From the NCBI GenBank assembly GCA_043228905.1, contig JBHGNT010000016.1, positions 3,472,001-3,536,000 on the forward strand: a DNA stretch of 64,000 nucleotides, read 5' to 3'. Source of the stretch: Azolla caroliniana. Lineage: Eukaryota; Plantae; Polypodiophyta. Below, in pieces: positions 34,663 through 61,658 of the stretch. Position numbers and translations under genes: made by a program. Position 1 is the stretch's first letter; the number at the start of each line of letters is the position of its first letter. The notes under the pieces were generated by a model. That model was given only the letters and a program-made list of their open reading frames with translations. It did no database searches and was not told where the DNA came from.

Positions 34663-34933
34663 TGTTGGGAAACAGGTCTCTTCGGATGGGATCCGGACGA
34701 GTTGAAGGAAGGAACCAGACTGGATGGGTTTGAAAGGTATCCGGATACTAGATCAAATGGATCCGGAAGGAATCCGACCGGATCTGGTATGAACTAGCAA
34801 CTAGGAACATATTAGTAAATATGTATAGACACGACCGTTGAGGTCATATTTATAAATAGCCTCAAAGTTATAGTAGTATAAATATAACTAGGGCAATACT
34901 ATTATGTATGATCATCATTGTAGTTGTTATTGC

Positions 34934-35005
<72 letters not shown>

Positions 35006-36952
35006 CTCTGTTGTAACCGTCGGTTGGCGAAGATAGAGCTCGAGGTCGTTGTGTCTGAGTCTCCCATTGTATCTTTCTACTCATAGTGATAGTTGGAGTT
35101 TGTGGGCTCCCGTGGTTTTTTCCCTATCAGGGTTTTCCACGTTAAACATCTTGCGTCGTCTCATTTCAGTTTATTTTTGTTTCTTCCATAGTGTGATTGA
35201 GACTCGGTTGTGGCCGAGTGCTATTTCTTACAAACTGGTATCAGAGCATGGAAGATCCATTTGGCGGCATGTTCAAGCTCACTGGCTCCAACTAACCAGT
35301 GTGGAAGTCGATGATGAGGAACATGTTGGTGGTTAAAGATCTCTGGCTGCTGGTATAGTTTGGGGACAAAAGACCCGACAAGATCAATGCTGCTACATAG
35401 GAAATAATGCACATGAAAACGATGGCATAGATTCGATGCTTCATCGACATGAGTTTGTACAATAACTTTATCACCTTCATGTTCCTTGTTCGGCTCGACT
35501 GTTGCCATCGTACTTCGATTCGTCTGGTCGGCTTTGATCAATTGATCGGTTACTTCCGTGTTGGGTGCTTATCGACTACTTCAGTGTCGCCTATTGTACT
35601 CCCCCTCAAGCTCGGCTAGGAGAAGTACATGAAAAAGGTGCTACGGTTCAACATGACGTATGTTAAGCCGGTCGGATCGACACTTCCGGCAAATTGCAAA
35701 CTATTCGGAAGGTAGAGTTCAAAGAAAAAGGCAGAGAAGTCGGAAATGATGAAGATAATGTATGCCTCTACCATCGGAAGCCTCATGTACACAATGGTGT
35801 GTACACGACCGGATATCAGACATGCAGTTAGAGTGGTCAGTCGGTTTATGAACGATTCGAGAACTGGACCGCAGTCAAGTGGATACTCCAGTACTTGAAA
35901 GGCACCTCGAGTATGTGCCTCCAATTTGGCTCAGGTAAACCCCAACGTGAAGGATTCACGGATTTAGATATATCGGCTGATGCGGATACCAGGCGGTCTA
36001 CATCTAGATATGTCATTACTTATGCACGGGGAGTTGTATTGTGCAGTCGAGGTTGTAGAAGTCTGTTGTACTGTCGACAACGGAAGTGGAGTACATGGCG
36101 ATTGTAGAAGCCGGTAAAGAGGTAATCTGGATGAAGGACTTCATTTGAGAGCTAGGGATCCGGCATGAGGAATTCTGGCTCTATTATGACAATCAAAGTG
36201 CCATCCACCTCGCGATGAACTTGGCCTACCATTCCCGAACCGAGCACATCCAGAGGAAATATCACTGGCTCCGGGAGAAGGTAGAAGATAAAGAGTTTTT
36301 GCTGACAAAGATCCATACGGAGGAGAACGGGTCGAACATACTGACCAAGGTGCTATTAGCCGACAAGTTGGATGTATGCCGGAGACAGATCAGACTAACG
36401 AGACATCCCATGTTGGAGTGAAGGGGGAGTTTGTTCGGAAACAGGTCCCTCCAAATGGGATCTGGATGAGCTGGATCGAATGAGCCGAAGGAAGGAACCA
36501 GACCGGATGGGTCCGGAAGGTATCCGGATACTAGATTAGATGGATCCGGAAGCAATCCGGCCATATCCGGTATGAACCAACAAATAGGAACATATTAGTA
36601 AATATGTTTAGACGTGACCGTTGAGGTCATATTTGTAAATAGCCTCAAAGTTATAGTACTATAAATATAACTAGGGCAATATTGTTATGTATGATCATCA
36701 TTGTACTTGTTATTGTACAGAGAGAGAGAGAGGTCTCTGTTGTAACTGCCGGTTGGTGAAGATAGAACTCGAGGTTGTAGCCTATGAGTCTCCCATTGTA
36801 TCTTTCCTCTCATAGTGATAGTTGGAGTCATGTGGATTTTTCCCTATTAGGGTTTTCCACGTTAAACATCTTGAGTAATCTCATTTCTGTTTTATTTTGT
36901 TTCTTCCATAGTGTGATTGAGACTCAGTTGTGGCCAAGTGCAATTTCTTACA
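34663..36952 (+). mobile_element. Internally deleted, degenerate Ty1/copia LTR retrotransposon
   Basis: 5' LTR 34663-35232 and 3' LTR 36432-36952 (TG...CA, diverged). PBS TGGTATCAGAGC (tRNA-iMet) at 35236-35247. Decayed gag start, RT-end/RNaseH remnant ~35616-36421 (YHSRTEHIQRKYHWLRE), and PPT GAGTGAAGGGGGAG. The TSD is not clean. Confidence 0.9.
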
Positions 36953-39198: not shown

Positions 39199-39888
39199 AC
39201 GGTACTTCTGTCAGTCCCACGAGGACTTATATAAATAGTGCTACTGAGTGCCGTACACCGCGCTCGGCCACAACCGAGAAATAGGATCAAATCACAGAAA
39301 ACAGGAAATACGAAATGCTCCAAGACTACAGAGAGAAGAGTACACAGGATATTTTACGTGGAAAACCCTAAATGGGAAAAACCACGGGAGTCCTCAAACT
39401 CCAACTCACACTATACACAGAGATGTACAATGGTGAAGCTTCAAGGCAACAACCTTGAGTTCACTGTCTTCGCCACAGGCGGCGGCAATACACAGAGGCG
39501 TCGACCTCTTCCTTTCTCTCTCTCTCTCTCTCGGCTGCTCTCACTTCGCTCTCTCACCAGAACATAGAATGAGCAACAACATAAAACTGTTTGCCCTAAG
39601 TCATATTTATACACATATGACTTTCGGGCTATTTACAAATATAGCCTCAAGGGCCCTTGGCAAACATATTCACAAATATGTCCCCGCATCCGGATCTCTC
39701 TCCGGGTACATTCCTCATCCGGCTCCGTAGCCGGGTCTTCGTCATCCGGCTCCGTAGCCGGGTACTCTTCATCCGGCTTCATGCCGGGTACTCTTCATCC
39801 TCCGGTTCCGTAACCGCAACCGGGCTTGCTGTCATTCATCTCCGGACATCCCATCCGGAGGGACCGTAAATCCCAACAAACTCCCCCT

Positions 39889-42800
39889 TCACTTCGGCAT
39901 GGGATGTCTCTCCAATCCGATCCTCTTCCGGCATGCTTCCAGCTTGTCGGGTGTAAGTACCTTAGTCAGCATATCCGACCCGTTCTCGTCCGTGTGGATC
40001 TTCGTCAGCACGAACTCCTTGTCTTCTATCCTTTCCCGGATCCAGTGATATCTTCGTTGGATGTGCTTCGTCCGGGAGTGATAGGCCGCGTTCTTCGCAA
40101 GGTGGATGGCACTCTGACTGTCGCAGTAGAGTCGGTACTCCTCCTGCAGGATTCCGAGCTCTCTAATGAAGTCCTTCATCCATATTATTTCCTTGCCGGC
40201 TTCAGCAGCCGCCATGTACTCCGCCTCCGTGGTTGACAGCGCAACCGTCTTCTGCAGCCTCGACTGCCACGAAACAGCTCCACCTGCATACGTCATCACA
40301 TACCCTGATGTGGACCGGCTGGTATCTGCATCAGCCGACATATCCGAATCGGTAAAGCCGTCGAATTCGGGCTTACCGGAGCCGAATCGGAGGCACACGT
40401 TTGCCGTGCCCTTCAGGTATCGGAGTATCCACTTGACCGCGTTCCAGTGCTCTTTGCCGGGATTGCTCATGTACCGACTCACCACTCCAACTGCATATGC
40501 TATGTCCGGTCTTGTACACACCATTGCGTACATCAAGCTTCCGACGGCAGAGGCATATGGTACTTTCATCATGTCCTCCTTCTCAGCCTTTGTCTTGGGG
40601 CTTTGCTTGCTGGACAACTTGCAGTTTGCCGGGAGGGTCGATCCAACCGGTCTTGCTTCCGACATGTTGAACCGTTTAAGCACCTTTGTCACGTACTTCT
40701 CCTGTGACAGCCACAACTGCTTCTTGCTCCGGTCCCGGATGATGTGCATCCCTAGTATTTGCCTCGCCGGACCCAGGTCCTTCATTGAGAAGGTTCGGTG
40801 AAGTGCTTTCTTCAGCCTCCGTATCTTGACCCGGTCCCGTCCGACGATCAACATGTCGTCCACGTACAGGAGGAGTATTAGGAAGTCTCCTCCTTCGAAC
40901 TTCTTCACAAACACGCAATGATCGGACTGCGTTTTGTGGTACCCTTCGTCGGTCATGAAAGAGTCGAACTTCCGGTACCATTGTCGGGGAGCCTGCTTCA
41001 GTCCGTAAAGGCTCTTCTTCAACCGGCACACCAGGTGCTCCTTCCCTTTCTTCTCGAATCCTTCTGGTTGCTGCATGTAGATCTCTTCTTCGAGGTCACC
41101 GTGAAGGAATGCCGTCTTCACGTCCATCTGTTCTACCTCGAGGTCCATGCTTGCCGCTATGCTCAGCACCGTCCGGATGGAGGTCATCTTCACTACCGGG
41201 GCAAATATCTCGTCGAAGTCGACGCCCTTCTTCTGCTGGAACCCCTTCACCACGATCCTGGCTTTGTATCTCGGGGGGTTTCCGGCATCTCCCGGTTTCA
41301 GCTTGAACACCCACTTGTTACGGAGTGCCCGTTTTCCTTTCGGCAGCTCCACCAGTTCATATGTGTGGTTCTCATGCAGGGAATCCATCTCGTCCTGCAT
41401 GGCACTCAACCACCTGCGGCTCTGGGTGTCATGCTTTGCTTCTTCAAAGCTCTCCGGCTCCCCCTCGTCGGTTAGCAGCACGTGCTCTGGTTCCGGAAAT
41501 CTCCGGGGGGCCCTTCTCTCTCTTAGAGGATATCTCCGTTCCGGAGCTTCGGTAACCGGTTCTTCCGATTCTTCTTCATCCGAATCCATTTCGGAATCGG
41601 GGCCGGTCCCGGTATCATTTTCATCTTCTTCGGCCGGTTCTGTTTCTTCACCGTCTTCGGCCGGATCCTCGAGTGCTAACCGGTCCCTTGCCGGTCGGGA
41701 CTGCTCCTCGTAGAGTTGATCCTCACCGGTCGACTTGGAGCTCTTCATCTTCTTCTCCGACTCCAAGTCGGCGAGTGTCTTGTCCTCCATGAAGATGATG
41801 TCTCGACTCCTGAATATCTTCTTGTCAACCGGGTCCCATACTCGGTAGCCGAACTCGTCGTCGCCGTAACCGAGGAATATGCATGGCCGGGTCTTTGGAT
41901 CTAACTTTCCTCTCCGGTCCTTTGCCACATGCACGTATGCGAGACACCCGAACACCTTCAGATGCCGGTAAGACACTTCCTTACCGGTCCACACTTTCTG
42001 CGGCGTGTCTCCGTCCAAAGGTACTGAGGGTGATCTATTTATCACATACGTCGCCGTCGACATTGCCTCAGCCCAAAATCCCTTGGGTAATTTCGCATGC
42101 GCCAGCATACTCCGGACCCTCTCCATTATGGTCCGGTTCATCCTCTCGGCCAGCCCGTTCAGTTCCGGCGTCTTCGGCACTGTAAACTCGAGCCGGATTC
42201 CCTTCGAGCGACAGTACTCCTGGAACTGCCCCCGGTATTCCCCTCCGTTATCCGCTCGTATCGCTTTCAGCTTCTTGCCGGATTCCCTTTCCACTCTCGC
42301 GTGGAGTTCTTTGAAGACGGACAACACTTGGTCCTTTGTCTTCATCGGTGCCGTCCACAGTCTTCGGCTATGATCATCTATGAAAGTTACGAAGTACTGG
42401 GCTCCGCCATGTGACTTCGTTTCTACCTGACACACATCAGTGTGCACCAGCTCCAATGGTGCGCTACGTCTCGTCGGTGGCCTTGAGTGGAAGGAGGCTC
42501 GGTTCTGCTTACCGGCCAGGCAATCGGTGCACTTCTCCAGGTGCACATGCTTCACTGGAATGAGGTTGTCTTCTGCAAGCCTCTTCATCCCCTTCTCGCT
42601 CATGTGGCACAGTCTCTTGTGCCACAGCTCACCGGCAGTGTCAGCTGCCACGTTCAGCTCCTCCGGACATAGCCGGGAATTCATCAGGTACAGTGTGTTG
42701 ACCTTCCGGGCCCGAGCCACTATCAGGCTCCCTTTGCTGAACTTCATGACACCGTTCCGTATGCTACCCGTGTAGCCTTCATCGTCTAGCCTCCCAGCCG

Positions 42801-43962
42801 AAATCAGGTTCAATCGAACCTCCGGAACGTGTCGGACATCCTTCAGCAGCATCTTGCATCCGGTTGATGTCATCAACCACACGTCTCCTATGCCGGCAAT
42901 CCGGCATGTACCTTCATTTCCCATCCGGACAAAACCGTGCTCGCCGGCTGTGTAGGATGAGAAGTATTTCTTCTCCGGGGTCAGGTGGAACGACGCTCCG
43001 GAATCGACCACCCAGGTCATCTCTACACCGGCAAGGTTCAGCTCCCTCTCTTCGGTAATGAGCATTATCTCTTCTTCACTTGCCGCGAGTGCTGTCGTTC
43101 CTTTCCGGTCCTGCCCTCGCCGATCCGGACCTCTCCGGTCCGTGGCTCCCCGGTATGCACCGTTTCTCTCCGGTGACTTCTTCGAATCGGTGTCGTCGGC
43201 TCCGTTGTCCTTTCGGTAATGCCGACAATTCTTCCGGAAGTGCCCCGGCTTTCCACAGTGGAAGCATGTTGGCCTTCCTCTTGACTGCGACCGGGTCCCC
43301 GACTTCTCCCGTCTTTGCGGACTCCGGTTCCATTGTCTTCCCTGATCCGATTCGGTAAGCAGCGCCTTCGAGTCGGTGGCCGGTTCTTTATCTCTCCGAC
43401 GCGCTTCTTCGTTCAAAATACTTGTCTTTACCGTTTGTAGAGACAAGTTATCTTCGGTGCAGGAGGTGCTGAGAGTCACCACCAAGTTCTCCCAGCTGTC
43501 CGGCAATGTACACATCAGGATGATGGCTTGCATTGCATCCTCCAACGGGAACTTGATCGCCGCAAGCTGGTTCACGAATCCCATGAACGTGCTTACGTGT
43601 TCCACCATACTCTCGCCGTCCCGGTACTTGAGATTCACAATCTTCCTCATCAGGGAGGTCCGGTTCAACGCATTCTTCCTCTCGTAGAGGCCCGACAGCT
43701 TCTTCCACATCTCATATGCGTTGGTGTCATTCGCCACATGTTGTAGGACGCTTACATCGACATATTGTCGGATCGTCGCTACGGCTTTCCGGTTCAGGAG
43801 CTTCCACTCCGACTCAAGTACTCCCTTCGGTATTTCCGACCTGTCAATCGGTTCGTACAGGTCCCGAACAATCAGAAGATCCTCCATCTTGATCTTCCAG
43901 TCGGCGTAGTTCTGCGCATTCAGCACCATCATTCCCGGCTGCCCGCTGCTGCCGCCTTCCAT
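39889..43962 (-). CDS. Copia Gag-Pol polyprotein (GAG, CCHC knuckle, protease, integrase, RT, RNase H), 1357 aa, uninterrupted
   Basis: First ATG after the PBS (MEGGSSG). Motifs CFHCGKPGHFRKNC, WVVDSGAS, LWHKRLCH, FIDDHSR..DNGGEY..ERMNRT, MDVKTAFLHG, LYVDDM, FTDSD..STTEAEY and RTKHI. Confidence 0.97.
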   Translation of the reverse strand: MEGGSSGQPGMMVLNAQNYADWKIKMEDLLIVRDLYEPIDRSEIPKGVLESEWKLLNRKAVATIRQYVDVSVLQHVANDTNAYEMWKKLSGLYERKNALNRTSLMRKIVNLKYRDGESMVEHVSTFMGFVNQLAAIKFPLEDAMQAIILMCTLPDSWENLVVTLSTSCTEDNLSLQTVKTSILNEEARRRDKEPATDSKALLTESDQGRQWNRSPQRREKSGTRSQSRGRPTCFHCGKPGHFRKNCRHYRKDNGADDTDSKKSPERNGAYRGATDRRGPDRRGQDRKGTTALAASEEEIMLITEERELNLAGVEMTWVVDSGASFHLTPEKKYFSSYTAGEHGFVRMGNEGTCRIAGIGDVWLMTSTGCKMLLKDVRHVPEVRLNLISAGRLDDEGYTGSIRNGVMKFSKGSLIVARARKVNTLYLMNSRLCPEELNVAADTAGELWHKRLCHMSEKGMKRLAEDNLIPVKHVHLEKCTDCLAGKQNRASFHSRPPTRRSAPLELVHTDVCQVETKSHGGAQYFVTFIDDHSRRLWTAPMKTKDQVLSVFKELHARVERESGKKLKAIRADNGGEYRGQFQEYCRSKGIRLEFTVPKTPELNGLAERMNRTIMERVRSMLAHAKLPKGFWAEAMSTATYVINRSPSVPLDGDTPQKVWTGKEVSYRHLKVFGCLAYVHVAKDRRGKLDPKTRPCIFLGYGDDEFGYRVWDPVDKKIFRSRDIIFMEDKTLADLESEKKMKSSKSTGEDQLYEEQSRPARDRLALEDPAEDGEETEPAEEDENDTGTGPDSEMDSDEEESEEPVTEAPERRYPLRERRAPRRFPEPEHVLLTDEGEPESFEEAKHDTQSRRWLSAMQDEMDSLHENHTYELVELPKGKRALRNKWVFKLKPGDAGNPPRYKARIVVKGFQQKKGVDFDEIFAPVVKMTSIRTVLSIAASMDLEVEQMDVKTAFLHGDLEEEIYMQQPEGFEKKGKEHLVCRLKKSLYGLKQAPRQWYRKFDSFMTDEGYHKTQSDHCVFVKKFEGGDFLILLLYVDDMLIVGRDRVKIRRLKKALHRTFSMKDLGPARQILGMHIIRDRSKKQLWLSQEKYVTKVLKRFNMSEARPVGSTLPANCKLSSKQSPKTKAEKEDMMKVPYASAVGSLMYAMVCTRPDIAYAVGVVSRYMSNPGKEHWNAVKWILRYLKGTANVCLRFGSGKPEFDGFTDSDMSADADTSRSTSGYVMTYAGGAVSWQSRLQKTVALSTTEAEYMAAAEAGKEIIWMKDFIRELGILQEEYRLYCDSQSAIHLAKNAAYHSRTKHIQRRYHWIRERIEDKEFVLTKIHTDENGSDMLTKVLTPDKLEACRKRIGLERHPMPK

Positions 43963-44252
43963 TTTCTGTGTTACCGTGCTCTGATACCACTTTGCCGTAC
44001 ACCGCGCTCGGCCACAACCGAGAAATAGGATCAAATCACAGAAAACAGGAAATACGAAATGCTCCAAGACTACAGAGAGAAGAGTACACAGGATATTTTA
44101 CGTGGAAAACCCTAAATGGGAAAAACCACGGGAGTCCTCAAACTCCAACTCACACTATACACAGAGATGTACAATGGTGAAGCTTCAAGGCAACAACCTT
44201 GAGTTCACTGTCTTCGCCACAGGCGGCGGCAATACACAGAGGCGTCGACCTC

Positions 44253-44297
<45 letters not shown>

Positions 44298-44577
44298 TTT
44301 GCTCTGTTCCTTCTCTCTCTCTCTCTCTCTGTCGCTAACGGCTCTCCCTGTCGCTAACGGCTCTCTGTCGCTGTCGTCGCCGTCGCCGTCACCGTCGCCG
44401 TCGTCTGCAGCCGTCGTCTGCAGCCGCAGCAACCGTCGCCGTCTGCTCTCTCTCTCTATCGCTCGCTTCCTCGTCTCTCTCTGTCGCCTGCTCTCTCTAG
44501 TGTCGTCGCCGTCGCCGTCGCCGTCGCTGCCGTTATCTGCGGCCGTCGCCGTCTGCCACCGTGCAGTCGTCCACCGT

Positions 44578-44725
44578 CTGCTACCGCCGGCTGCCGTCTG
44601 CTGCCGCCGTCTGCCGTCTGCTGCCGCCGTCTGCCGTCTGCTGCCGCCGTCTGCCGTCTGCTGCCGCCGTCTGCCGTCTGCTGCCGCCGTCTGCCGTCTG
44701 CTGCCGCCGTCTGCCGTCGGCTGCC
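44578..44725 (+). repeat. GC-rich 20-bp tandem array (CTGCCGCCGTCTGCCGTCTG)n in the LINE 5' UTR
   Basis: About 7 copies directly visible. Confidence 0.9.
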
Positions 44726-44949
44726 GTCGTCTACCGTCGTTTTGACGACTGCCACCGTCACGGGGTGTTTTCTTCTCCGTTCTTGATGTGGTGAAGTACC
44801 TTTTTCTCGACGAGTTTCGTGGGTGGGCTCTTTTGGTGTGCTCGTCCCGTGCTACAAAATGCCGATGTGATTGCGACACACACAAAAACTCGGCTAAGTC
44901 TCGAACCCATTTATTTATTTTACCTTCTTTTTTTCTTATTGACACCACA

Positions 44950-45762
44950 ATGACGTCTAGACGGACTAAGGAACTTAAGGATATACAAGACGAGGCTATA
45001 AGTAAGGAGGACTTTTTAGATATGTTTAATCGTTTAACAAAAATAGAGATGGATATGAAAAAATGGGCGAAAGACACCGAAACCTACAAGAAAAAAGATA
45101 GAGAGGAAAAAGACGCCCTCAAGGCCGAAATCGAACAACTTAAAATAGAAAACATCGACCTTAAAAAACAACTTAAGGACATCGAGGTATCTCGAGAAGA
45201 CGGTGAAATATCCTCTATAGAGGATATAAAGGACGAAATTAAAAAAGTTAAAGAGGAAGTTAATAATAACATAGAGTTAGCTAAAACGGGTTGGGTAGAT
45301 GTGGTTAAGAGAAACATTAAAAAAGAAATAAAAGATGAAAATATTGTTAACACCACCCTTGAAGAAGAGAAAATGCGTCAGGCCCGACGCTTAAATGTAC
45401 GTGTCACTGGGCTCAAGGAAGGTGCATCCCCAAATGAGGACGCACAAACACTTGGGAAAATGTTAGGGTACACAGAGGCCCTACCTATCACCAAAGCATG
45501 GAGGGCCGGGCGTGACACAACTAGGAAGAGAGCCTTAGTCCTTCAATTTAAAGACTTAGACTCTAGAATCACTTTCTTTAAGAAGAGACCAATCCTTCGA
45601 GGAATGGATGGGGACCCCATCTATCTCGATGAAGACCTCACTAAGATGCAAATTGAGCATCGCAAGAGTTGTATGCCACGAGTTATGCAAGCTCGTAAAG
45701 AAGGCCATCGCGCCTTTTATCGAGACGGGCGAGTGATCATAAATGATCGCACTACTAACTGA
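44950..45762 (+). CDS. LINE ORF1 protein (coiled coil plus RRM-like region), 270 aa
   Basis: ATG at 44950 (MTSRRTKEL), a heptad-rich K/E/L segment, then RRLNVRVTGLKE and IYLDEDLT, typical of transposase_22/L2-like ORF1 C-terminal halves. No CCHC knuckle. Confidence 0.85.
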   Translation: MTSRRTKELKDIQDEAISKEDFLDMFNRLTKIEMDMKKWAKDTETYKKKDREEKDALKAEIEQLKIENIDLKKQLKDIEVSREDGEISSIEDIKDEIKKVKEEVNNNIELAKTGWVDVVKRNIKKEIKDENIVNTTLEEEKMRQARRLNVRVTGLKEGASPNEDAQTLGKMLGYTEALPITKAWRAGRDTTRKRALVLQFKDLDSRITFFKKRPILRGMDGDPIYLDEDLTKMQIEHRKSCMPRVMQARKEGHRAFYRDGRVIINDRTTN

Positions 45763-45768
45763 CGGCGT

Positions 45769-48700
45769 GTGGCCCATGTGACAGAAAATGCACTTAGGAT
45801 GACCCTATGGAATTGTAATGGCGCACTTTGGGCACACCCCGGCCGCCTAGAGGAGATACTAAAGGTATCTGATATACTCTTCTTGGTAGAAACACATCAG
45901 AGCCCAAATAGAGGACTCCCACGGGTCGAAGGATTCCGTTGGGAGTCCGCTTTTAGACAAACCTCACGTCGACACACTACTAGGGGATCTGGAGGTGTCG
46001 CGATACTATTTCGTAGAGAGCTACATAATAGGATAGAAATAATGAAGATAGACCCAGAAGCTCGTTTTATGTGGGTGAAAGTCTCCACAAGCAAAGACCA
46101 TGCAGTATTTTTCGCCATTTGTTACTTTCCCCCAAAAGGATCCCGTTATAATATTAGTGGCTTGACGAGATTAGTCGATGAAGGAATGACACATGGGCCT
46201 TCTCCATACGAACCCCTATCGGATGACATAATCCGATATTCTTCCCAAGGAGAAGTATTTCTTGTAGGAGACTTCAATGCGAGAACCCAATCCCGACAAT
46301 GCACAGTATTTCAGATGAATAGAAACCTAGAAATGGTAAATGTTGATCCTTTAGACATAGGCACCACACGTAGATCAAAGGATCAAGGTGCGGACGCCAC
46401 GAGCTTTGGCCATCACCTGCTCGAACTTGGCAGTCGGCACCAGATGGTCATATATAATGGTTTAGCTAAGTGGCCGGGCTCGGAAGAGCTCACATGTTTC
46501 CCACATGGAGGAGGGGAAAGCACAGTTGACTATCTAATAGGGCGCCCGACAGCTACCGACTTGATTAACTCCTTCCGAGTGGCCCCATGCCCTATTGGCG
46601 CAGACCATAGCTTCTTATACTTCGAGCTAAAATGTGATATCTCTAAGGTCACCAAGTCTAGTCAACCATGCCATCACACCACAATACATTTCACACATGA
46701 GCTCTCTGACATATACTCTCAACATGTTCATGCCCATCTCCCCTCCATTGATCCCTCTCTACCGTTAGAAAGCCTTAGTACAAAACTCACACACATCCTT
46801 CACTCCGCAGCAGCTAGCAGTTTCCCATATACAAAACACTCAAATCAAGGTAGATCAGGATCAATGCCACAAAATAAATGGTATGACGAGGATTGTAGGG
46901 ACCTACATAGACAACTTACAGTATCGCAACTCAATGGTAGTATTACCTCCACACAAGCTCGCAAAGAAATGCGTAAGATGACACGTCGTAAGAGACGAGC
47001 GTGGGAGGCATCCCAATACTGGGAACTCTACCATATGCTCATGAGTAGCGATTGCGCCACGGCATGGAAGAGACTACGGGAGCCAAGACCACAAACACCC
47101 ATCGAAGATCCCGAAACTTGGCACACATATACAGAGAGACTTTACCAAATCCCAAACCAACCACCTTTTCCAATGCCTTCCACACCCCGGCCTACCACGG
47201 GGACACTTTTCACGACCTCTAGGGTCATGAAGGTCATAAAGAAATTACAACATAGGAAGTCCATGGACCACACAGGATTGCGAGCAGAACACATTATATA
47301 TGCGAGAGAGTGCCTAGCTCCCTTGCTAACTCTAATCTTCAATCGTGCCCTTGCGGAGGGTTTTCCACCACAATGGACTATGAATACAGTGACCCCCATA
47401 CATAAAGGGGGGGACCCCATGGACCCAAATACATATAGGACCATTATGATAGGCCATACCTTTGCTAAGTTATATGGTGCAGTAATGGAAGCAGAGCTTA
47501 GCGACTACATGGAGACCCTAAACCTTCGTGCACCTGAACAAGCTGGCTTTAGACGAGCCTTCTCCACTGTTGATCACATCTTCACACTTAGATGCCTAAT
47601 TGACCAAACTAGGGCTCGCAAGAAGAGATTATATTGTTGTTTTGTGGACTTCCGCAAAGCCTTTGACACAGTCCCTAGAGATCGGTTGTCTGATAGACTT
47701 AAAAGCTTGAGGATACCAGATGATATGGTATGGGCCATCTACGCACTATATGAACAAGTGTCCGGGTGTGTCCGATGCCCAGGTGGCCTATCCAATCGTT
47801 TCACTAGCACTATTGGTGTAAAACAAGGTTGCCCCCTATCACCGACGCTTTTTGGGATTTACATTGATGAGATCACAGATTTTATTGCTCGTGAGGGAGG
47901 CACCGGAGTGGTCCTTGGGGATACGCAGGTTCGTATCTTGCTCTATGCGGATGACATAGTTTTGCTCTCTGAATCCGAACACGACCTACAGAGGCACCTC
48001 AATGCCTTAGATGACTTTTGTGTACAACGAGGATTGGTAGTGAATCTAGGGAAAACGAAAGTCCTTATCTTCCACACATCGGCCCAAGTTAGAGCTAAGT
48101 GTCACCTAACTATCTCCCATAGCCCAGTCGAGGTGGTTGGATCATACGTATATCTCGGAGTCACTTTTAGTGCCCGCTCAGGTAAATTTTCGATGACACA
48201 GGCAGCGAAGGATAGACTCACGAGAGGACATGCATCCCTCTCACTCCTAGAGAGACAATGCCACCAAGCACACTTTCAAGAGCCACGGACTAAAGGGTGG
48301 CTCTTTGACTCATTAGTGACCCCCTCCCTCATGTATGCATCTGCGGTTTGGGCTCCAGGATTACCATCCGTCATGTGGACGCAATTAGAGAGACCATTGG
48401 TGATGATGCTATCACGCCAACTCCGAAGCAAATCGACTGTACCACATGACATTATTAGGGCCGAGTTCACGTTACCGCCAATGCTAGTAGAGGCACTTTT
48501 TCAACTTGTAGTCTTTATTGATAGGATACATAGCCAACCACATGATAGAATATCTCATCAAGCCTTTAAGGCCTCTCGATCATTGTATGAGTCCGGCCAT
48601 ACTAGCTCATGGTATGGCATGATGGTGACTTGGCTTCTTGCGAATGGTCTAGACATTAATAACCTACCTCCCCTTAGGTACAACCACACGAGTGATAACA

Positions 48701-49500
48701 CCTTAATCTCTCATGAGAACCGCAATAAAGTAATACGCCAAGAAATATGGCAAATTTACACTCGGTGTAAATGGATCACCCCACTAGAGCCACTCCCATC
48801 TAAAATGTCGTACTATAAGAAACACTTCATGCACTTCTCTGAGTTAGGTTTTATCACACGGCCAAAATATCTAGATGTATTCTTACCACATGCACTAAGG
48901 GTTGCCATAGGACAACTTAGAATATCATCTCACCAACTTGAGATTGAAAATGGCCGTACTAGTGGAGTCCCTAGGGAGGAAAGGATATGTAGGTTATGTC
49001 ACATAGAGATAGAGGATGAGTACCACTTTACTTGCAAGTGTCCAACCTATGCCGAGATAAGGGCACAATACCAAGACATACTTGGTCCGTCTCCCACCCT
49101 CCCCGAACTATTAGATACTCTAGATATAAAGAAATTAGGCAAATACATTCTAGCGCTAAAACAACACAGAGAGAATAAATTACAAAATGTTGACAATAAT
49201 GCTGCTAATGATCACGAACATGTAACAAATGCAGTTTTTCAGGAACCTGAGGAGACAACGAATGCCGACACACTTGCACCACTCGGCCTTTCCATTGATG
49301 AGGCAGAAAACCAGAGAAGAACCAGACGTCCTCGGGTGCCGGGTTTCAAAACAACTCAACGTGATGTGGACGCAATATTGAAAATAAGGGAACGTGAGCT
49401 ACACCGCCTAGAAGCCATGGCTAGGGCACTCTCTACATTGGAACCCACATCAAGACCCTTTGACCCCCCACTTCTTTTCGAGAGGCTTGGGTGGAAATAA
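45769..49500 (+). CDS. LINE ORF2: apurinic endonuclease + reverse transcriptase + C-terminal CCHC, ~1240 aa, uninterrupted
   Basis: WNCNG, LVETH, GGVAIL, VGDFNA, STVDY and ADH (APE); EQAGFR, FVDFRKAFD, GVKQGCPLSPTLF, LYADD and YLGV (RT); CRLC....EDEYHFTCKC. The first ATG is at 45799, but the frame is open from the ORF1 stop. Confidence 0.95.
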   Translation: MAHVTENALRMTLWNCNGALWAHPGRLEEILKVSDILFLVETHQSPNRGLPRVEGFRWESAFRQTSRRHTTRGSGGVAILFRRELHNRIEIMKIDPEARFMWVKVSTSKDHAVFFAICYFPPKGSRYNISGLTRLVDEGMTHGPSPYEPLSDDIIRYSSQGEVFLVGDFNARTQSRQCTVFQMNRNLEMVNVDPLDIGTTRRSKDQGADATSFGHHLLELGSRHQMVIYNGLAKWPGSEELTCFPHGGGESTVDYLIGRPTATDLINSFRVAPCPIGADHSFLYFELKCDISKVTKSSQPCHHTTIHFTHELSDIYSQHVHAHLPSIDPSLPLESLSTKLTHILHSAAASSFPYTKHSNQGRSGSMPQNKWYDEDCRDLHRQLTVSQLNGSITSTQARKEMRKMTRRKRRAWEASQYWELYHMLMSSDCATAWKRLREPRPQTPIEDPETWHTYTERLYQIPNQPPFPMPSTPRPTTGTLFTTSRVMKVIKKLQHRKSMDHTGLRAEHIIYARECLAPLLTLIFNRALAEGFPPQWTMNTVTPIHKGGDPMDPNTYRTIMIGHTFAKLYGAVMEAELSDYMETLNLRAPEQAGFRRAFSTVDHIFTLRCLIDQTRARKKRLYCCFVDFRKAFDTVPRDRLSDRLKSLRIPDDMVWAIYALYEQVSGCVRCPGGLSNRFTSTIGVKQGCPLSPTLFGIYIDEITDFIAREGGTGVVLGDTQVRILLYADDIVLLSESEHDLQRHLNALDDFCVQRGLVVNLGKTKVLIFHTSAQVRAKCHLTISHSPVEVVGSYVYLGVTFSARSGKFSMTQAAKDRLTRGHASLSLLERQCHQAHFQEPRTKGWLFDSLVTPSLMYASAVWAPGLPSVMWTQLERPLVMMLSRQLRSKSTVPHDIIRAEFTLPPMLVEALFQLVVFIDRIHSQPHDRISHQAFKASRSLYESGHTSSWYGMMVTWLLANGLDINNLPPLRYNHTSDNTLISHENRNKVIRQEIWQIYTRCKWITPLEPLPSKMSYYKKHFMHFSELGFITRPKYLDVFLPHALRVAIGQLRISSHQLEIENGRTSGVPREERICRLCHIEIEDEYHFTCKCPTYAEIRAQYQDILGPSPTLPELLDTLDIKKLGKYILALKQHRENKLQNVDNNAANDHEHVTNAVFQEPEETTNADTLAPLGLSIDEAENQRRTRRPRVPGFKTTQRDVDAILKIRERELHRLEAMARALSTLEPTSRPFDPPLLFERLGWK

Positions 49501-50209
49501 AATTAGGCTTAGTGTATAGTCACTTTCGAGTATACTACATATTGTACACTACTAGAACTCTTTTAGTTTAAGTTCTATTTTTTTTACTTAATTTTATTTT
49601 TAGTTATGATGACTGGATAAATACTCTATTGTTGTAAACCAATTGTCTCATGGGCCAAATTTGGCCTTAGAAGACGTTAATACACCTTTCTTTCTTTCTT
49701 TCTTTCTCGGCTGCTCTCACTTCGCTCTCTCGCCAGAACATAGAATGAGCAACAACATAAAACTGTTTGCCCTAAGTCATATTTATACACATATGACTTT
49801 CGGGCTATTTACAAATATAGCCTCAAGGGCCCTTGGCAAACATATTCACAAATATGTCCCCGCATCCGGATCTCTCTCCGGGTACATTCCTCATCCGGCT
49901 CCGTAGCCGGGTCTTCGTCATCCGGCTCCGTAGCCGGGGTCTTCCTCATCCGGCTCCGTAGCCGGGTCTTCGTCATCCGGCTCCGTAGCCGGGTACTCTT
50001 CATCCGGCTTCATGCCGGGTACTCTTCATCCTCCGGTTCCGTAACCGCAACCGGGCTTGCTGTCATTCATCTCCGGACATCCCATCCGGAGGGACCGTAA
50101 ATCCCAACACTGAGCACAGTTGTAAGTGAGAGAGTGTTTTTATTGTTTTGAATATAGCTTTTACGCTCACCGGCTCCCATTGGGTGTTGTGGCTCGTTTG
50201 TCTCGACCT

Positions 50210-55720: not shown

Positions 55721-56325
55721 GGCTCCGTTGATTACCTCTCCAAGGCCGAGGATACCACATGCCCGAAGTTGCTCCTCCGCCTTTTTTTTCTTCTTGCCAA
55801 CAACATCGACTATCGTACACCCTCCGTTGTCGGAGAACCAAAATTTCCTACTTATAGTACAGGTCTATTTCGGTATCATACACTGGTGGGGTTTTCCCGG
55901 AGTGTCCGGACTATCGCGGCCCCACGCCTTGATAGCCCTCTCTAAAAATCCTCTCGGCTTTTGCCCCCGAGGGTCTCGCGGTTCCGCTCATGGTTCGGTC
56001 TCACCGTCAGGAACTGGACCGAGTGACGCCCATCCTGTCATAACTAGACTCGAACCCATAACCTTTTGTTACACGGGTCGAGACTTTACCATTAGGTTAT
56101 GAATTGTAATTTGAAGGATATTATTTTCATTTAGGTTTTATTGGGAAATTGATGTATATTCCAGATTTCTCTGGAACATTCTAGAAACTTCAGGAGTATT
56201 CTTGAAGACACTATAAAAGGAGGCGCAAGGCATTAGTTCGAACCAAATCGGTTCAACGCCAGTCTTAAGCCTTCTAACTACTGTTGTATATCTTCTGTCA
56301 TATAATACATATATCTTTCGCATCA

Positions 56326-56363
<38 letters not shown>

Positions 56364-56586
56364 ACTCATTCCTTCTCTCAAAGTTCGACACCTCTCATAG
56401 TACTAATCCTTCTCTGTCTTAGTACTATTCCCCAACAATAGTACTAATCCTTCTTTTAGTACTAATTCCTTCTCTGCCTTAATAGAGTTCCTGACAGTTT
56501 GAACCGATTTTTTGACTACTAGTCTCCCTCTTCCTTCTGTCTCCCTCCTTTCCTACTAGTCTCTTATTTCCCTTTTCCTTCATCCC

Positions 56587-57756
56587 ATGGCCACCGTTAG
56601 CGCTGAAGAGTATCAATCCGTTTTCTCGGAATTTCAATGCTTGAAAGAGAAGTTTCATGCTTTGGAACAAGAAAATCAACGCTTGTTGGGGGATCTTCAG
56701 CAAATTTCCTTAGAAAAGCAGCAAACGCAACAACAGCATGGGGAACTTGCGTTACGCGTGCAACAACTCGAAGCAACCATCGTAGCAATGCAACAACAAG
56801 GGCACGGAGCACAAGGGATTCATAAAGAACCCAAGATTGGCCTTCCCACGAAGTTCGATGGAACGCGATCGCAGTTTAGAGGGTTTCTTAACCAGGTACG
56901 GTTAGTTATTCAAATGCATCCGTCCCGATATCCCACCGATGCATCACGAGTGGGTTTAGTAGGCACGTTGTTAAATGGCTCAGCATTAGCATGGTTCGCT
57001 CCGCTACTAGAAAAGGAATCTCCAGTACTAAATAATTTTGAAGAATTCATAAGTGAGTTTAAAGCATGTTTTGGAGATACTGACAGCATAAGGACTGCAA
57101 TCAACAAAATCCGGCGATTACGCCAAGGTGACCGTCCAGCCTCCGCATATGCTGCAGATTTCCGCCTACTCGCCGCCGATATCCCCTGGGATGATCAAGC
57201 ATTGATGGAGCAGTTCCGCTATGGTCTACGCAACGATGTCAAGGATTTACTCTTGACTTTCCCTGAAGAGCCAAAATCATTAACAGAAGCAATCAGTCGA
57301 GCGGTCAGATGTGACAACCGCCTCTTCGAGCGACGTTCGGAACGACAATTTCAGATGCCGAGGGCAAGATCCGAGCCTACCTATGCCTCAGTGGTAGCGA
57401 AACCTTTTCAAAGGGAGTCACATAATGCGCCTCCAGTAAGTACTCCAACTCCAATGGAAATTGACACTACACGTCGTCGTGGGCCGCTATCGGAGGAGGA
57501 AAAGCAACGACGCCGAACAAACCGATTATGCCTTTATTGCGGTGGACCAGGGCATATCGCGATAAACTGTCCCCATAGACCAAGAAGGCAGGTAAACCAA
57601 GTCATTGTTAGTTCTGACTATACTAAACCCGAGTCTATTTCAGTAGGAATCTCTGATAATCCTCATAGTCATAATAGTCCTAATAGTACTAATAGTCCGA
57701 ATCTCGCAAACAAATTTGATGTCCTTAGCCAATTAGAAGAAGAGTTAAACGACTAA
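56587..57756 (+). CDS. Chromovirus Gag (PEG10/sushi-like capsid plus CCHC knuckle), 389 aa
   Basis: PTKFDGTRSQFRGF, LLNGSALAWF, LRQGDRPASAYAADF, FRYGL, PTPMEID and CLYCGGPGHIAINC. Confidence 0.95.
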   Translation: MATVSAEEYQSVFSEFQCLKEKFHALEQENQRLLGDLQQISLEKQQTQQQHGELALRVQQLEATIVAMQQQGHGAQGIHKEPKIGLPTKFDGTRSQFRGFLNQVRLVIQMHPSRYPTDASRVGLVGTLLNGSALAWFAPLLEKESPVLNNFEEFISEFKACFGDTDSIRTAINKIRRLRQGDRPASAYAADFRLLAADIPWDDQALMEQFRYGLRNDVKDLLLTFPEEPKSLTEAISRAVRCDNRLFERRSERQFQMPRARSEPTYASVVAKPFQRESHNAPPVSTPTPMEIDTTRRRGPLSEEEKQRRRTNRLCLYCGGPGHIAINCPHRPRRQVNQVIVSSDYTKPESISVGISDNPHSHNSPNSTNSPNLANKFDVLSQLEEELND

Positions 57757-60700
57757 GTCCAGCCAAAATAGGAGCCGTTTGGTTGGACAGCCCTAGATCT
57801 GTGCAGCCCATTAGTGGTTCCATTCCCTCTAAGCAAGTTAGTGATGTGTTCGTAGCCCAAGTAGCAGTTAGTACTAAAAGTACCCCTCCAGTACATACCT
57901 TAGCCCTTCTAGATTCCGGAGCTAATTCTTGCTTCATGGATAGGAATTTTGCCCGAGCTCATCAGATATCTCTCAGAAAGCTCCCATGTCCAGCCTCAGT
58001 AGTAGTCATTGATGGTCGTCCCATTGCTTCTGGTAATATCATAGAAGAGTCGGAACCCGTTAATATTGTCCTAGATAACTTAACATGTGTAGTATCATTT
58101 AATATTATTAGTATTCCAGAACATCCCATAGTTTTAGGATTACCATGGTTCGAGTTACATGACCCAGACATAGATTGGAGGACAAGGGAAATCCGGTTGC
58201 GACAAACCCAAGGATCTATCCAGAAGGTTGCAACCATTTCGCTACGTCAGTTGCGTGAGGAAGGGCGCAAGGAGGAAATGTTTCTCTTTGCAATATCAGT
58301 ACAACCCTCCAGCACCACCAAAGAGGAGTCCACCGTTCAACTTCCCGAGAAGTATCGTCAGTATGCTGATGTGTTCGATAAAGAACAAGCCAACACACTT
58401 CCTCATCATCGGCCGTACGACTGCGCCATCGACTTACAACCGGGAAAAGAGCCGCCATGGGGGCCGATCTACAATTTGTCACCAACCGAGCTAGAAGTCC
58501 TTCGAGCCTATATAGAGGAGAATTTGGAGAACGGTTTCATTCGGCATTCGAAATCTCCAGCCGGCGCACCCATTTTCTTCGTCAAGAAAAAAGATGGCTC
58601 GCTTCGACTCGTTGTAGATTACCGTGGCTTGAATAAGGTCACAGTAAGAAATAGGTATGCTCTTCCCCTTATCTCAAGTCTTTTAGAACGGATCAACGGT
58701 GCCAGGTTCTTCACGAAGATCGACTTACGAGGAGCCTATAACCTCGTACGGATCCGACCAGGAGATGAATGGAAGACCGCGTTTCGCACCAGATATGGGC
58801 ACTTCGAGTATACGGTCATGCCGTTCGGACTCACTAATGCGCCGGCAGTCTTCCAACACATGGCGAATGATATATTTCGAGATCTCTTGGATGATTTTTT
58901 GATCATCTATTTGGATGATCTACTGGTTTATTCAAAGACCCAAGAAGAACATGATTCTCATGTACTATTAGTACTAAAACGACTTCGAGAACATGGTCTG
59001 TATGCAAAGTTAGAGAAATGTAGTTTCGGGTGCAACCAAGTGGAGTTTCTCGGCTATGTCATCTCCTCAGAAGGCATATCTATGGACCCAGCCAAGGTCA
59101 AAACGGTGATAGAATGGCACACTCCGCGTTCGGTGCGGGATGTGCAATGCTTCCTAGGCTTTGCAAATTTCTACCGGAAGTTCATACAAAATTACTCAAA
59201 AATTGTGCTGCCTCTCACACAGCTCACCAGGAAGGGACAATCATTCATTTGGTCTAAAGAGACGGACATGGCTTTCGAGAGTCTTAAGAAGGCGTTTACA
59301 TCAGCTCCAATTTTAGGTCATGTGGATCCGGAAAAACCATTCATTATCGAAGCTGATGCATCGGATTTCGCATTGGGGAGCATTCTGTCACAACAGGGTA
59401 ACGACGAGAAGCTACATCCTGTGGCTTTCCACTCCCGTAAGTTTGACGCCGCCGAAATCAACTACGAAATTCATGATAAAGAGCTATTAGCAATAGTTGA
59501 TTCTTTTATGCAATGGAGGCATTTCCTGGAGGGATCTCCTCATCAGGTCACTGTATTCAGTGACCACAAGAACCTTGCCTACTTTCAAGATGCTCGTGTA
59601 CTGAATCGACGTCAAGCTCGGTGGGCCCACTTCCTCACACGCTTCGACTTCAAAATTACATATCGTCCGGGGAAGCACCAAGGGAAGGCAGATGCATTAT
59701 CACGGCGTTCGTATCTAACACCACGTCCCGGTGAGCCAGCTTTCGATAACCAGAAGCAAGTAATCTTGGGTCCAGCACGACTGCAAGCAGCACAGGTCTT
59801 TGACATGCCCGTGGATTCCGACATTACCAATACTATACGTGAGGACTTGAAGACTGACGCTTTCGCCCAAGCTATACTAGCACAAATTGACCCCTCTCGA
59901 GCGTCATGTTCACAATCACAATCACCAGGTACGGATTATCGGCAATTCAAATACTGTGATGGATTACTCTTCTTTAAAGAACTTTTGTATGTTCCTAATG
60001 GTTCTTGCCGCCTTCGAGTAGTACAAAACTGCCATGACACATATACAGCAGGACATTTTGGTAGTACTAAAACATTAGATTTAGTACAACGATCATTCTG
60101 GTGGCCCCGTATGCGACAATTTGTCGAAGATTTTGTTCGGACTTGCGATACATGCTGCAGAGCGAAAATGCCAAGACATCATCCATATGGTTTATTAGAA
60201 CCATTACCAATTCCAAGCAAGCCATGGCAATCCATTGCTCTTGACTTCATTACAGATCTTCCAGTCTCTAAGGGATTCAGTGCGATTCTCACAGTGGTGG
60301 ATCGATATACGAAGATGGCTCATTTCTTACCATGTACTAAAGAAATATCTAGTGAAGACACCGCCGAAATTGTCATGCGGGAAGTATGTCGGCATCATGG
60401 ACTCCCTGATAATATCATCAGCGATCGTGGACCCCAGTTTGTGTCAAAATTCTGGAAGCACCTTTTTAAAATGCTGAAGGTCACTTGTAACCTCTCCTCC
60501 GGCTACCACCCACAAACCGACGGTCAAGCCGAACGAACAAATCAAACACTGGAGCAGTATCTGCGGTGCTTTCTCAACTATCATCAGAATGACTGGGCAG
60601 ATATTCTTCAGTTCGCCGAATTTGCCTATAATAACGCTATCCACGCATCGACTAAAGTCACGCCATTCTACGCTTATACGGGATATCATCCCCGGTGGTG

Positions 60701-61340
60701 TGTCCTTGAAACCCCAGAAGTGTCCACAAATCCTTGCGCGGAGGATCGTTTGGAGCGGTTACGCAAGATACAAGCGGATTTATCTACTCAACTCCAGCAA
60801 GCTCAACAATCACACAAGGACTACGCAGATCGTCATCGACTTCCATCCAGTTTTAAGATTGGAGATCGGGTGTGGCTGCTACGACGACACATCAAGACTA
60901 CTCGCCCATGTGAGAAGTTGGATTATCGGCGATTAGGTCCTTTCCGTATTATCGGGAAGATTAATGATGTCGCTTTTCGTCTCGAGCTACCTCCGCAACT
61001 TCGGATACACCCGGTGTTTCATAGTTCTCTCCTCGAACCCTATCACGAGAGCACTATCCCAGGACGTACTATACAACCTCCACCTCCTATCGAGCTCGAA
61101 GATGGACCTGAGTATGAGGTCGCTGCCATCCTCGATTCCAAGATTGTTCGCAACAAGCTCTACTATCTAGTCGATTGGCTAGGATATAGTCCCAGCGAGC
61201 GTACTTGGGAACCGATCGAGAATGTGACCAATGCTCGTGCTCTTCTAGAAGACTTCCATCGACGATATCCCGAGAAACCGGGTCCTCAATCCAAAACGAC
61301 TCGTGAAACTCGTCGTTTTAAAGGGGGGATAGTGTCATAA
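57744..61340 (+). CDS. Chromovirus Pol (protease, RT, RNase H, integrase, chromodomain) in the -1 frame relative to gag
   Basis: ALLDSGA, PIFFVKKKDGSLRLVVDYR, YLDD, EADASDFA, H....GH..C..C, ISDRGPQF, HPQTDGQAER, GPF, and chromodomain EYEVAAILD...YLVDWLGY....TWEP. There is no ATG before the protease; the frame is open from 57729. Confidence 0.95.
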   Translation, partial: VKRLSPAKIGAVWLDSPRSVQPISGSIPSKQVSDVFVAQVAVSTKSTPPVHTLALLDSGANSCFMDRNFARAHQISLRKLPCPASVVVIDGRPIASGNIIEESEPVNIVLDNLTCVVSFNIISIPEHPIVLGLPWFELHDPDIDWRTREIRLRQTQGSIQKVATISLRQLREEGRKEEMFLFAISVQPSSTTKEESTVQLPEKYRQYADVFDKEQANTLPHHRPYDCAIDLQPGKEPPWGPIYNLSPTELEVLRAYIEENLENGFIRHSKSPAGAPIFFVKKKDGSLRLVVDYRGLNKVTVRNRYALPLISSLLERINGARFFTKIDLRGAYNLVRIRPGDEWKTAFRTRYGHFEYTVMPFGLTNAPAVFQHMANDIFRDLLDDFLIIYLDDLLVYSKTQEEHDSHVLLVLKRLREHGLYAKLEKCSFGCNQVEFLGYVISSEGISMDPAKVKTVIEWHTPRSVRDVQCFLGFANFYRKFIQNYSKIVLPLTQLTRKGQSFIWSKETDMAFESLKKAFTSAPILGHVDPEKPFIIEADASDFALGSILSQQGNDEKLHPVAFHSRKFDAAEINYEIHDKELLAIVDSFMQWRHFLEGSPHQVTVFSDHKNLAYFQDARVLNRRQARWAHFLTRFDFKITYRPGKHQGKADALSRRSYLTPRPGEPAFDNQKQVILGPARLQAAQVFDMPVDSDITNTIREDLKTDAFAQAILAQIDPSRASCSQSQSPGTDYRQFKYCDGLLFFKELLYVPNGSCRLRVVQNCHDTYTAGHFGSTKTLDLVQRSFWWPRMRQFVEDFVRTCDTCCRAKMPRHHPYGLLEPLPIPSKPWQSIALDFITDLPVSKGFSAILTVVDRYTKMAHFLPCTKEISSEDTAEIVMREVCRHHGLPDNIISDRGPQFVSKFWKHLFKMLKVTCNLSSGYHPQTDGQAERTNQTLEQYLRCFLNYHQNDWADILQFAEFAYNNAIHASTKVTPFYAYTGYHPRWCVLETPEVSTNPCAEDRLERLRKIQADLSTQLQQAQQSHKDYADRHRLPSSFKIGDRVWLLRRHIKTTRPCEKLDYRRLGPFRIIGKINDVAFRLELPPQLRIHPVFHSSLLEPYHESTIPGRTIQPPPPIELEDGPEYEVAAILDSKIVRNKLYYLVDWLGYSPSERTWEPIENVTNARALLEDFHRRYPEKPGPQSKTTRETRRFKGGIVS

Positions 61341-61622
61341 CTAGACTCGAACCCATAACCTTTTGTTACACGGGTCGAGACTTTACCATTAGGTTATGAA
61401 TTGTAATTTGAAGGATATTATTTTCATTTAGGTTTTATTGGGAAATTGATGTATATTCCAGATTTCTCTGGAACATTCTAGAAACTTCAGGAGTATTCCT
61501 GAAGACACTATAAAAGGAGGCGCAAGGCATTAGTTCGAACCAAATCGGTTCAACGCCAGTCTTAAGCCTTCTAACTACTGTTGTATATCTTCCGTCATAT
61601 AATACATATATCTTTCGCATCA

Positions 61623-61658
<36 letters not shown>

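Follow-up and report, generated by a model that had tools for sequence, protein, structure and literature searches.

Does a retrotransposon that sits in a simple TC repeat owe its position to chance, or does it select such repeats? The question is raised by a 64,000-nucleotide stretch of the Azolla caroliniana genome (assembly GCA_043228905.1, contig JBHGNT010000016.1, positions 3,472,001 to 3,536,000; hereafter the window), in which an intact long interspersed nuclear element (LINE) lies within a TC microsatellite of a Copia long terminal repeat (LTR). A first-pass annotation of the window had proposed from this one insertion that the LINE might belong to a microsatellite-targeting family. 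The LINE is an APE-type non-LTR retrotransposon of a recently active family, and across that family the flanks are enriched in TC on one strand; the targeting is a preference for a TC run of about 8 nt in a single orientation, short of strict specificity. The preference probably arises from nicking of the GA strand by the APE endonuclease of the element, helped by pairing of the RNA tail.

The LINE, on the plus strand, interrupts the 5' LTR of a Copia element that runs on the minus strand; the LTRs of this Copia end in TG..CA, and its CTGAG target-site duplication (TSD) is intact on both sides (Table 1). The filled site reads, in order, (TC)17, a 19-nt spacer, (TC)9 at 44312-44329, the leader, open reading frame (ORF) 1, ORF2, the 3' untranslated region (UTR), (TTTC)5, one TC (49707-49708) and the LTR. 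The first-pass annotation was right about the (TC)9 of the empty sister LTR, the (TC)17 to the left, the (TTTC)5-TC to the right and the two intact ORFs; its end point for the LINE, 49710, lies 2 nt too far, the host LTR restarting at 49709, and its description of the insertion as precise is not demonstrable, both junctions being hidden within TC. The LTR pair, which it called near-identical, has no differences over the 266 bp to the left of the insertion, and to the right a single substitution and a 55-bp tandem-unit indel; the LINE and Copia insertions are therefore both recent. When the window insertion was sought in four sequencing runs as a polymorphism, the matches were short contigs of the highly repeated stretch.

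A 24-nt pattern at the 3' end defines a young family with 137 exact matches genome-wide, and a looser pattern defines a wider lineage with 1,617. The sample used below consists of 107 distinct 3' ends, drawn from 100 listed places and from places found by DNA search with identical flanks merged, and leaves out about 29 of the 137 matches. Median identity of the sampled copies to the window copy is 98.6%; 26 extend to the 5' leader and 81 are 5'-truncated, every copy has at least one tail unit, the 3' end is common, and LTRs are absent. Both ORFs are open in several full-length copies.

Right after the tail, T is found in 97 of the 107 copies, TC in 78, (TC)2 in 56, (TC)3 in 46, (TC)4 in 35 and (TC)6 in 22. 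The background was 200 kb taken from 20 round, evenly spaced coordinates, scored at positions following a TC, where another TC occurs in 10%, (TC)2 in 2.2%, (TC)3 in 1.3%, (TC)4 in 1.0% and (TC)6 in 0.6% (binomial p <1e-25 at each length). The probability that the run continues by a further TC unit is 0.73, 0.72 and 0.82 for units 1-3 against 0.10, 0.22 and 0.58 in the background, and 0.76-0.81 against 0.77-0.83 for the next three. Because the excess is confined to the first three units, the selected feature would be about four TC units when those shared with the tail are counted, and the long tracts, similar in length to tracts of the genome at large, would come from the target. TC runs of at least 8 nt occur in the 3' flanks of 41 of 107 copies against 0.7%, and in the 5' flanks of 23 of the 81 truncated copies against 0.7% of random 30-mers; the latter cannot be tail-derived. 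For 36 copies an empty paralogous site could be located; 25 of these sites hold a TC run of at least 8 nt, and 18 hold one of at least 12 nt. Where a copy has little TC after its tail, the empty paralog often has a small CTCT-like core (L053, L065, L120, L129). The wider lineage has (TC)4 no more than 24 nt from the second tail unit in 248 of 786 forward copies, a count that may include the last TC of the tail, and (GA)4 in 1 of 1,617 copies; gapped-pattern counts on the reverse strand were excluded, as single copies were counted repeatedly. The rule of PMC4494074 speaks of targeting when the same repeat is present in more than 20% of flanks, and both 41/107 and 248/786 lie above that level.

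The same data bear on the view that there is no targeting at all, the tracts being made by the element through slippage or the copies merely persisting in microsatellites. Full-length copies do extend TC on the 5' side (L053, L124), as this view would have it. It is nevertheless very improbable: the tract is already present in the empty sister LTRs of the window copy and of L056 (97% identity), the copies are young, the strand asymmetry is 248 to 1, and all ten copies in the window Copia LTR group lie in one orientation at positions 266-295 of the 630-bp LTR, at its tract 267-284.

A second family of the same genome speaks to the same point. Unrelated young L1/Tx1-like LINEs (L293:324-6377 and L294-L308), with a zinc-knuckle ORF1, an ORF2 with endonuclease, reverse transcriptase (RT) and zf-RVT domains and an extra zf-RVT frame, were brought in to serve as a negative control on flank composition but proved to be (GA)n-preferring themselves, so that the comparison is one without a neutral LINE control. 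At their 3' ends, 14 of which were inspected, a short run of A leads into GA repeats; among 138 exact ends, (GA)4 lies within 16 nt in 50 of 74 forward copies, the orientation being opposite to that of the window LINE family. This bias argues against passive accumulation. The L1-like GA family is possibly a plant counterpart of Kibi.

The 5' junctions are of several kinds. A scan of the 81 truncated copies for TSDs other than TC repeats gave three matches, of which L115 alone is convincing, L130 lying in a tandem array and L123 being a 9-nt match; the random flanks and ordinary TSDs that would be expected of an element without target choice are thus not what the family presents, the flanks being TC-rich and a clear ordinary TSD being found in one of 81. 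Of the other junctions, L056 has a blunt join concealed by TC, L065 and L147 have lost a little of the target and show microhomology on the 5' side, and L120, L133 and L096 have extra bases. A TC run of at least 8 nt lies no more than 45 nt from the first leader motif in 19 of 22 near-full-length copies, and L053 and L124, whose empty paralogs have 2-3 TC units, have left tracts of (TC)20 and (TC)43; since the run is so common and these tracts far exceed the empty paralogs, the LINE brings its own 5' (TC)n. The spacer at 44293-44311 with its flanking TC is foreign to the LINE: other full-length copies lack the spacer, and it matches another locus. The genome has three instances of the 21-mer around the spacer: the one in the window and two at G000:C16:6058412-6058477, a locus 2.5 Mb distant, with which the window shares 60 bp of identity running from TC to TC. 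No LINE body is found in 20 kb around this donor, which follows a TATA-like box and lies upstream of exons, on the same strand, of what we take from its motifs and a Pfam Exo_endo_phos2 match to be a 5-phosphatase-like gene. In L109, 41 bp are identical to G000:C9:3201842 and its scaffold duplicate; this donor is LINE-free and upstream of a ubiquitin hydrolase gene, apparently between divergent genes. Both captures are bounded by TC(T), the donors being 2.5 Mb away or on another chromosome, and donors were found for two of four odd 5' pieces tested. 5' transduction was rejected as the source of the spacer, as no LINE body lies in the 20 kb around the window donor or the 10 kb around the L109 donor, although a copy since lost, or absent from the assembly, is conceivable. 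The simplest reading is that a (GA)n end of the cDNA paired with a foreign TC tract, in RNA or DNA, and that a short stretch was copied. As a separate observation, the very short copy L123 (G000:C7:21586117 region) has four units of the plant-telomere type, TTTAGGG, between the target TC tract and its 5' end; these units are lacking in the empty paralogs.

Since both capture donors are at gene 5' regions, many of the targets are LTR tracts and two unrelated LINE families target the same repeat, one may ask whether TC/GA tracts attract the integration complex through promoter accessibility or through a host GAGA-binding factor (BBR/BPC), with insertion at the nearest short TCT. We regard such tethering as improbable, since by itself it gives no reason to expect in-phase junctions or two families that are strictly oriented in opposite directions, and insertions in the coding sequence of other elements (L053, L065, L120, L129) are still at short CTCT.

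Target-primed reverse transcription is established for APE LINEs. In the scheme we favour, the APE endonuclease would nick the GA strand of a TC run of about 8 nt, at a position that we infer, and the pyrimidine tail of the RNA, with its UUUCU end, would pair with the freed primer end and start reverse transcription. At the 5' side, the join would form by pairing between the (GA)n end of the cDNA and the left portion of the tract, a few bases of the target often being lost; a capture would result when this end pairs beforehand with TC at another locus, in promoter DNA or a leader RNA, and copies 20-60 nt ahead of joining. A different division of labour would leave the choice to the RNA: a loose endonuclease nicks, and the transcript 3' end, which may run into the (UC)n of its source flank, pairs with nicked (GA)n, so that the preference is inherited from the site of the source copy. 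The enrichment lies on the side of the primer and dies away after about three units, and the tails of related lineages vary among (TTC)n, (AATAG)n, (GAAA)n and (CAT)n, as expected if tails mirror targets. We hold this to be unlikely, as the encoded tail is TTTC rather than TC, the short-tract sites L053, L056 and L147 have no added TC units on the 3' side, and an unrelated A-tailed family is more biased to the same repeat (50/74) without a matching tail.

Several observations weigh against our own scheme. No more than one TC unit follows the tail in 51 of 107 copies, 10 of 107 have no following T, and only 5 of 17 older copies inspected have at least four TC units at the 3' junction. Most empty paralogs are 73-93% identical and thus serve as proxies, about 4 of the 36 being poor or showing neighbouring tails, and the 200-kb background contains 35 tracts of at least 12 nt. 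For the remaining two odd 5' pieces, in L039 and L129, a search of the assembly returned only the pieces themselves. Endonuclease specificity and RNA-DNA pairing are moreover inseparable from sequence alone, because both act on the downstream flank.

Pfam places Exo_endo_phos at residues 4-265 and RVT_1 at 534-783 of ORF2, and the APE and RT motifs, intact in the window copy, are conserved in 15 aligned relatives wherever covered. ORF1 has no Pfam match and a PDB sequence search with it returned coiled coils only; its predicted model (mean predicted local distance difference test score 81) combines a long coiled coil with an RRM and a C-terminal domain (CTD), and the ten top PDB matches to the model are human L1 ORF1p (E 6e-7 to 7e-5). 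The final 45 nt before the tail are predicted to fold into a two-part stem-loop, which recurs with changed letters in most relatives folded, the lowest at about 27% ORF2 identity. In an alignment of 13 sequences, three of four outer-stem pairs have changed on both sides; RNAalifold returned the outer 4-bp stem alone, because loop lengths differ. This suggests a 3' recognition signal of the stringent type. ORF1 stops at a TGA that shares the frame of ORF2 (window 45760-45783 region). The segment just beyond can pair at 13 of 14 positions with the 5' arm of the stem-loop (49644-49657), a score equalled in 2 of 300 shuffles; the pairing is preserved with altered letters in L190 (45% ORF2 identity). 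It would exclude the stem-loop, which suggests a possible switch between translation and use as template.

Table 1. Coordinates of the LINE and of its host Copia element in the window.
Feature	Position	Strand	Remarks
Copia TSD, left (CTGAG)	39244..39248	.	5 bp, matches right copy
Host Copia 3' LTR, empty	39249..39878	-	contains pre-insertion (TC)9, 39515-39532; adjoining polypurine tract
Host Copia gag-pol ORF	39889..43962	-	1357 aa, open; RVT_2, Retrotran_gag_2, rve
Host Copia 5' LTR, section left of LINE	43993..44258	-	0/266 differences from sister LTR; adjoining primer-binding site
(TC)17	44259..44292	+	target tract fused with captured TC; 8 units above whole empty site
Captured 60-bp segment	44267..44326	+	(TC)13, 19-nt unique core (44293-44311) and (TC)7; identical to LINE-free G000:C16:6058412
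LINE 5' UTR	44312..44949	+	(TC)n start, then GC-rich short tandem repeats
ORF1p, 270 aa	44950..45762	+	coiled coil, RRM and CTD predicted, like human L1 ORF1p; without zinc knuckle
Segment just 3' of in-frame ORF1 stop	45770..45783	+	complementary at 13/14 to 49644-49657
ORF2p, 1233 aa	45799..49500	+	APE endonuclease, RT (YADD at 716), C-terminal Cys/His motif
Predicted 3'-terminal two-part stem-loop	49645..49675	+	retained in relatives down to ~27% ORF2 identity
(TTTC)5 tail	49687..49706	+	1-13 tail units, mostly 4-6, across 107 copies
Final TC unit of target and remaining host 5' LTR	49707..50109	-	from LTR comparison
Copia TSD, right (CTGAG)	50110..50114	.	matches left copy

Elsewhere in the window, a Gypsy-like LTR element at 56036-61632 has near-identical LTRs with a TC tract in each, and LTRs related to it at other loci are insertion targets of the window LINE family (L013, L032). 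An older Copia-related element at 34694-36952, in opposite orientation, has an (AG)34 tract in one LTR. Two sets of minus-strand exons presumably belong, judging from their translations, to a copper amine oxidase gene (26176-30381) and a BES1/BZR1-like gene (10587-12320).

Homologs of the LINE proteins are found in ferns, one gymnosperm and one charophyte alga, the nearest named ones being from the ferns Adiantum, Ceratopteris and Pteridium. The metagenome relatives L188 and L203 (47-51% ORF2 identity) retain a TTTC-type tail; more distant relatives use other repeats. Among the latter, L208-L263 have a common 3' stem-loop and a GAC(G/A)TTAA motif, with tails of (AATAG)n, (GAAA)n, (TTC)n, (CAT)n or A-rich repeats. 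Some lineage members (L099, L101, L039, L046/L021) are inserted inside, at or beside the 3' end of fellow members.

TC/GA tracts mark plant promoters and LTRs, and the family is therefore likely a promoter mutagen. It also disrupts other retrotransposons, as in the window, where an intact Copia carries the LINE in its 5' LTR, and its full-length insertions add TC units at their landing sites. Microsatellite choice by APE-type LINEs has been stated to be poorly understood (PMC3812793), and two unrelated young families on opposite strands of the same repeat in one plant genome offer a direct domain-swap test of endonuclease against tail. Builders of LINE-based insertion tools may likewise take an interest in a target that is short, abundant and strand-specific.

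With respect to classification, the Tx1/L1 group is characterized by a zf-RVT domain in ORF2 and a zinc-knuckle ORF1. The window LINE has neither zf-RVT nor zf-CCHC at Pfam E 0.1, and its RT is 24% identical to that of L292, an L1-like element of this genome, against 39-89% for 27 of 28 other relatives compared; in the quick RT tree L292, on a long branch, stands for the L1 group, with no Tx1 reference included. PDB scores place R2 above human L1 ORF2p. Poly(A) tails are found in 224 of 233 flowering-plant L1 families (PMC3472496), whereas the 107 copies have tails of (TTTC)n type. We thus reject Tx1/L1 membership, domains, RT distance and tail all being against it, and likewise the plant RTE clade, whose tails are (TTG)n or (TTGATG)n (PMC3472496). 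The RT and C-terminal motifs look RTEX-like, and RTEX is our tentative best guess for the clade. Like the window LINE, RTEX elements have two ORFs, APE and RT domains and a short tandem-repeat tail in place of poly(A), a feature not unique to RTEX; the green-algal families listed in PMC3472496 (Table 1) end in CA, CAA, CCAT, ACAATG or CTTGTAA, and TTTC is absent among those listed. RTE-X appears in a Ceratopteris repeat table (PMC6890710), and the information drawn from PMC3747384, PMC5753468 and PMC6890710 is limited to tails and listings. A search of the open-access literature turned up no account of RTEX elements that target microsatellites, nor of a TC-targeting plant LINE.

Among mechanistic parallels, the L2-clade element ZfL2 has, like the window LINE family, a specific 3' RNA end (required for its priming), 5' microhomology, short target loss and extra nucleotides; an annealing pathway has been described for its 5' junctions, and a large share of their extra nucleotides comes from the flanks, in contrast to the two TC-bounded captures found here, from 2.5 Mb away or another chromosome (PMC4245944). 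The Chlamys Penelope-like elements of green algae are also microsatellite-biased, of the green lineage and with TSDs hidden in repeats, but they carry a GIY-YIG endonuclease, target (CA)n or (C)n and form a separate subclass (PMC8557442).

Microsatellite-targeting LINEs are known from animals (Waldo, Mino, Kibi, Koshi and Dong; PMC3812793), including teleost Kibi in (TC)n and Koshi in (TTC)n and crocodilian Tx1 families in (TTCC)n/(TTTC)n (PMC3812793, PMC4494074); what is new is a TC-preferring plant LINE family that fails the Tx1/L1 tests. The parallel with Kibi and Koshi drawn in the first-pass annotation survives as one of function and not of membership, given the lack of zf-RVT and zf-CCHC, the distant RT and the coiled coil-RRM-CTD ORF1. 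We give about even credence to the broader view that, among land-plant LINEs, this is the first lineage beyond L1/Tx1 with microsatellite homing, one that would use TC at both ends, through the GA-strand nick and tail pairing at the 3' end and through a (TC)n leader that lengthens tracts and shuttles promoter fragments at the 5' end, alongside an unrelated L1/Tx1-like family converged on the opposite strand. Kibi, Koshi and the crocodilian Tx1 families share with the window LINE an APE-type non-LTR organization and a preference for TC microsatellites; the window LINE differs from them in its domains and RT, its plant host, its (TTTC)n tail, its sense-strand TC, its looser preference and its TC-led 5' end with ectopic captures (PMC3812793, PMC4494074).

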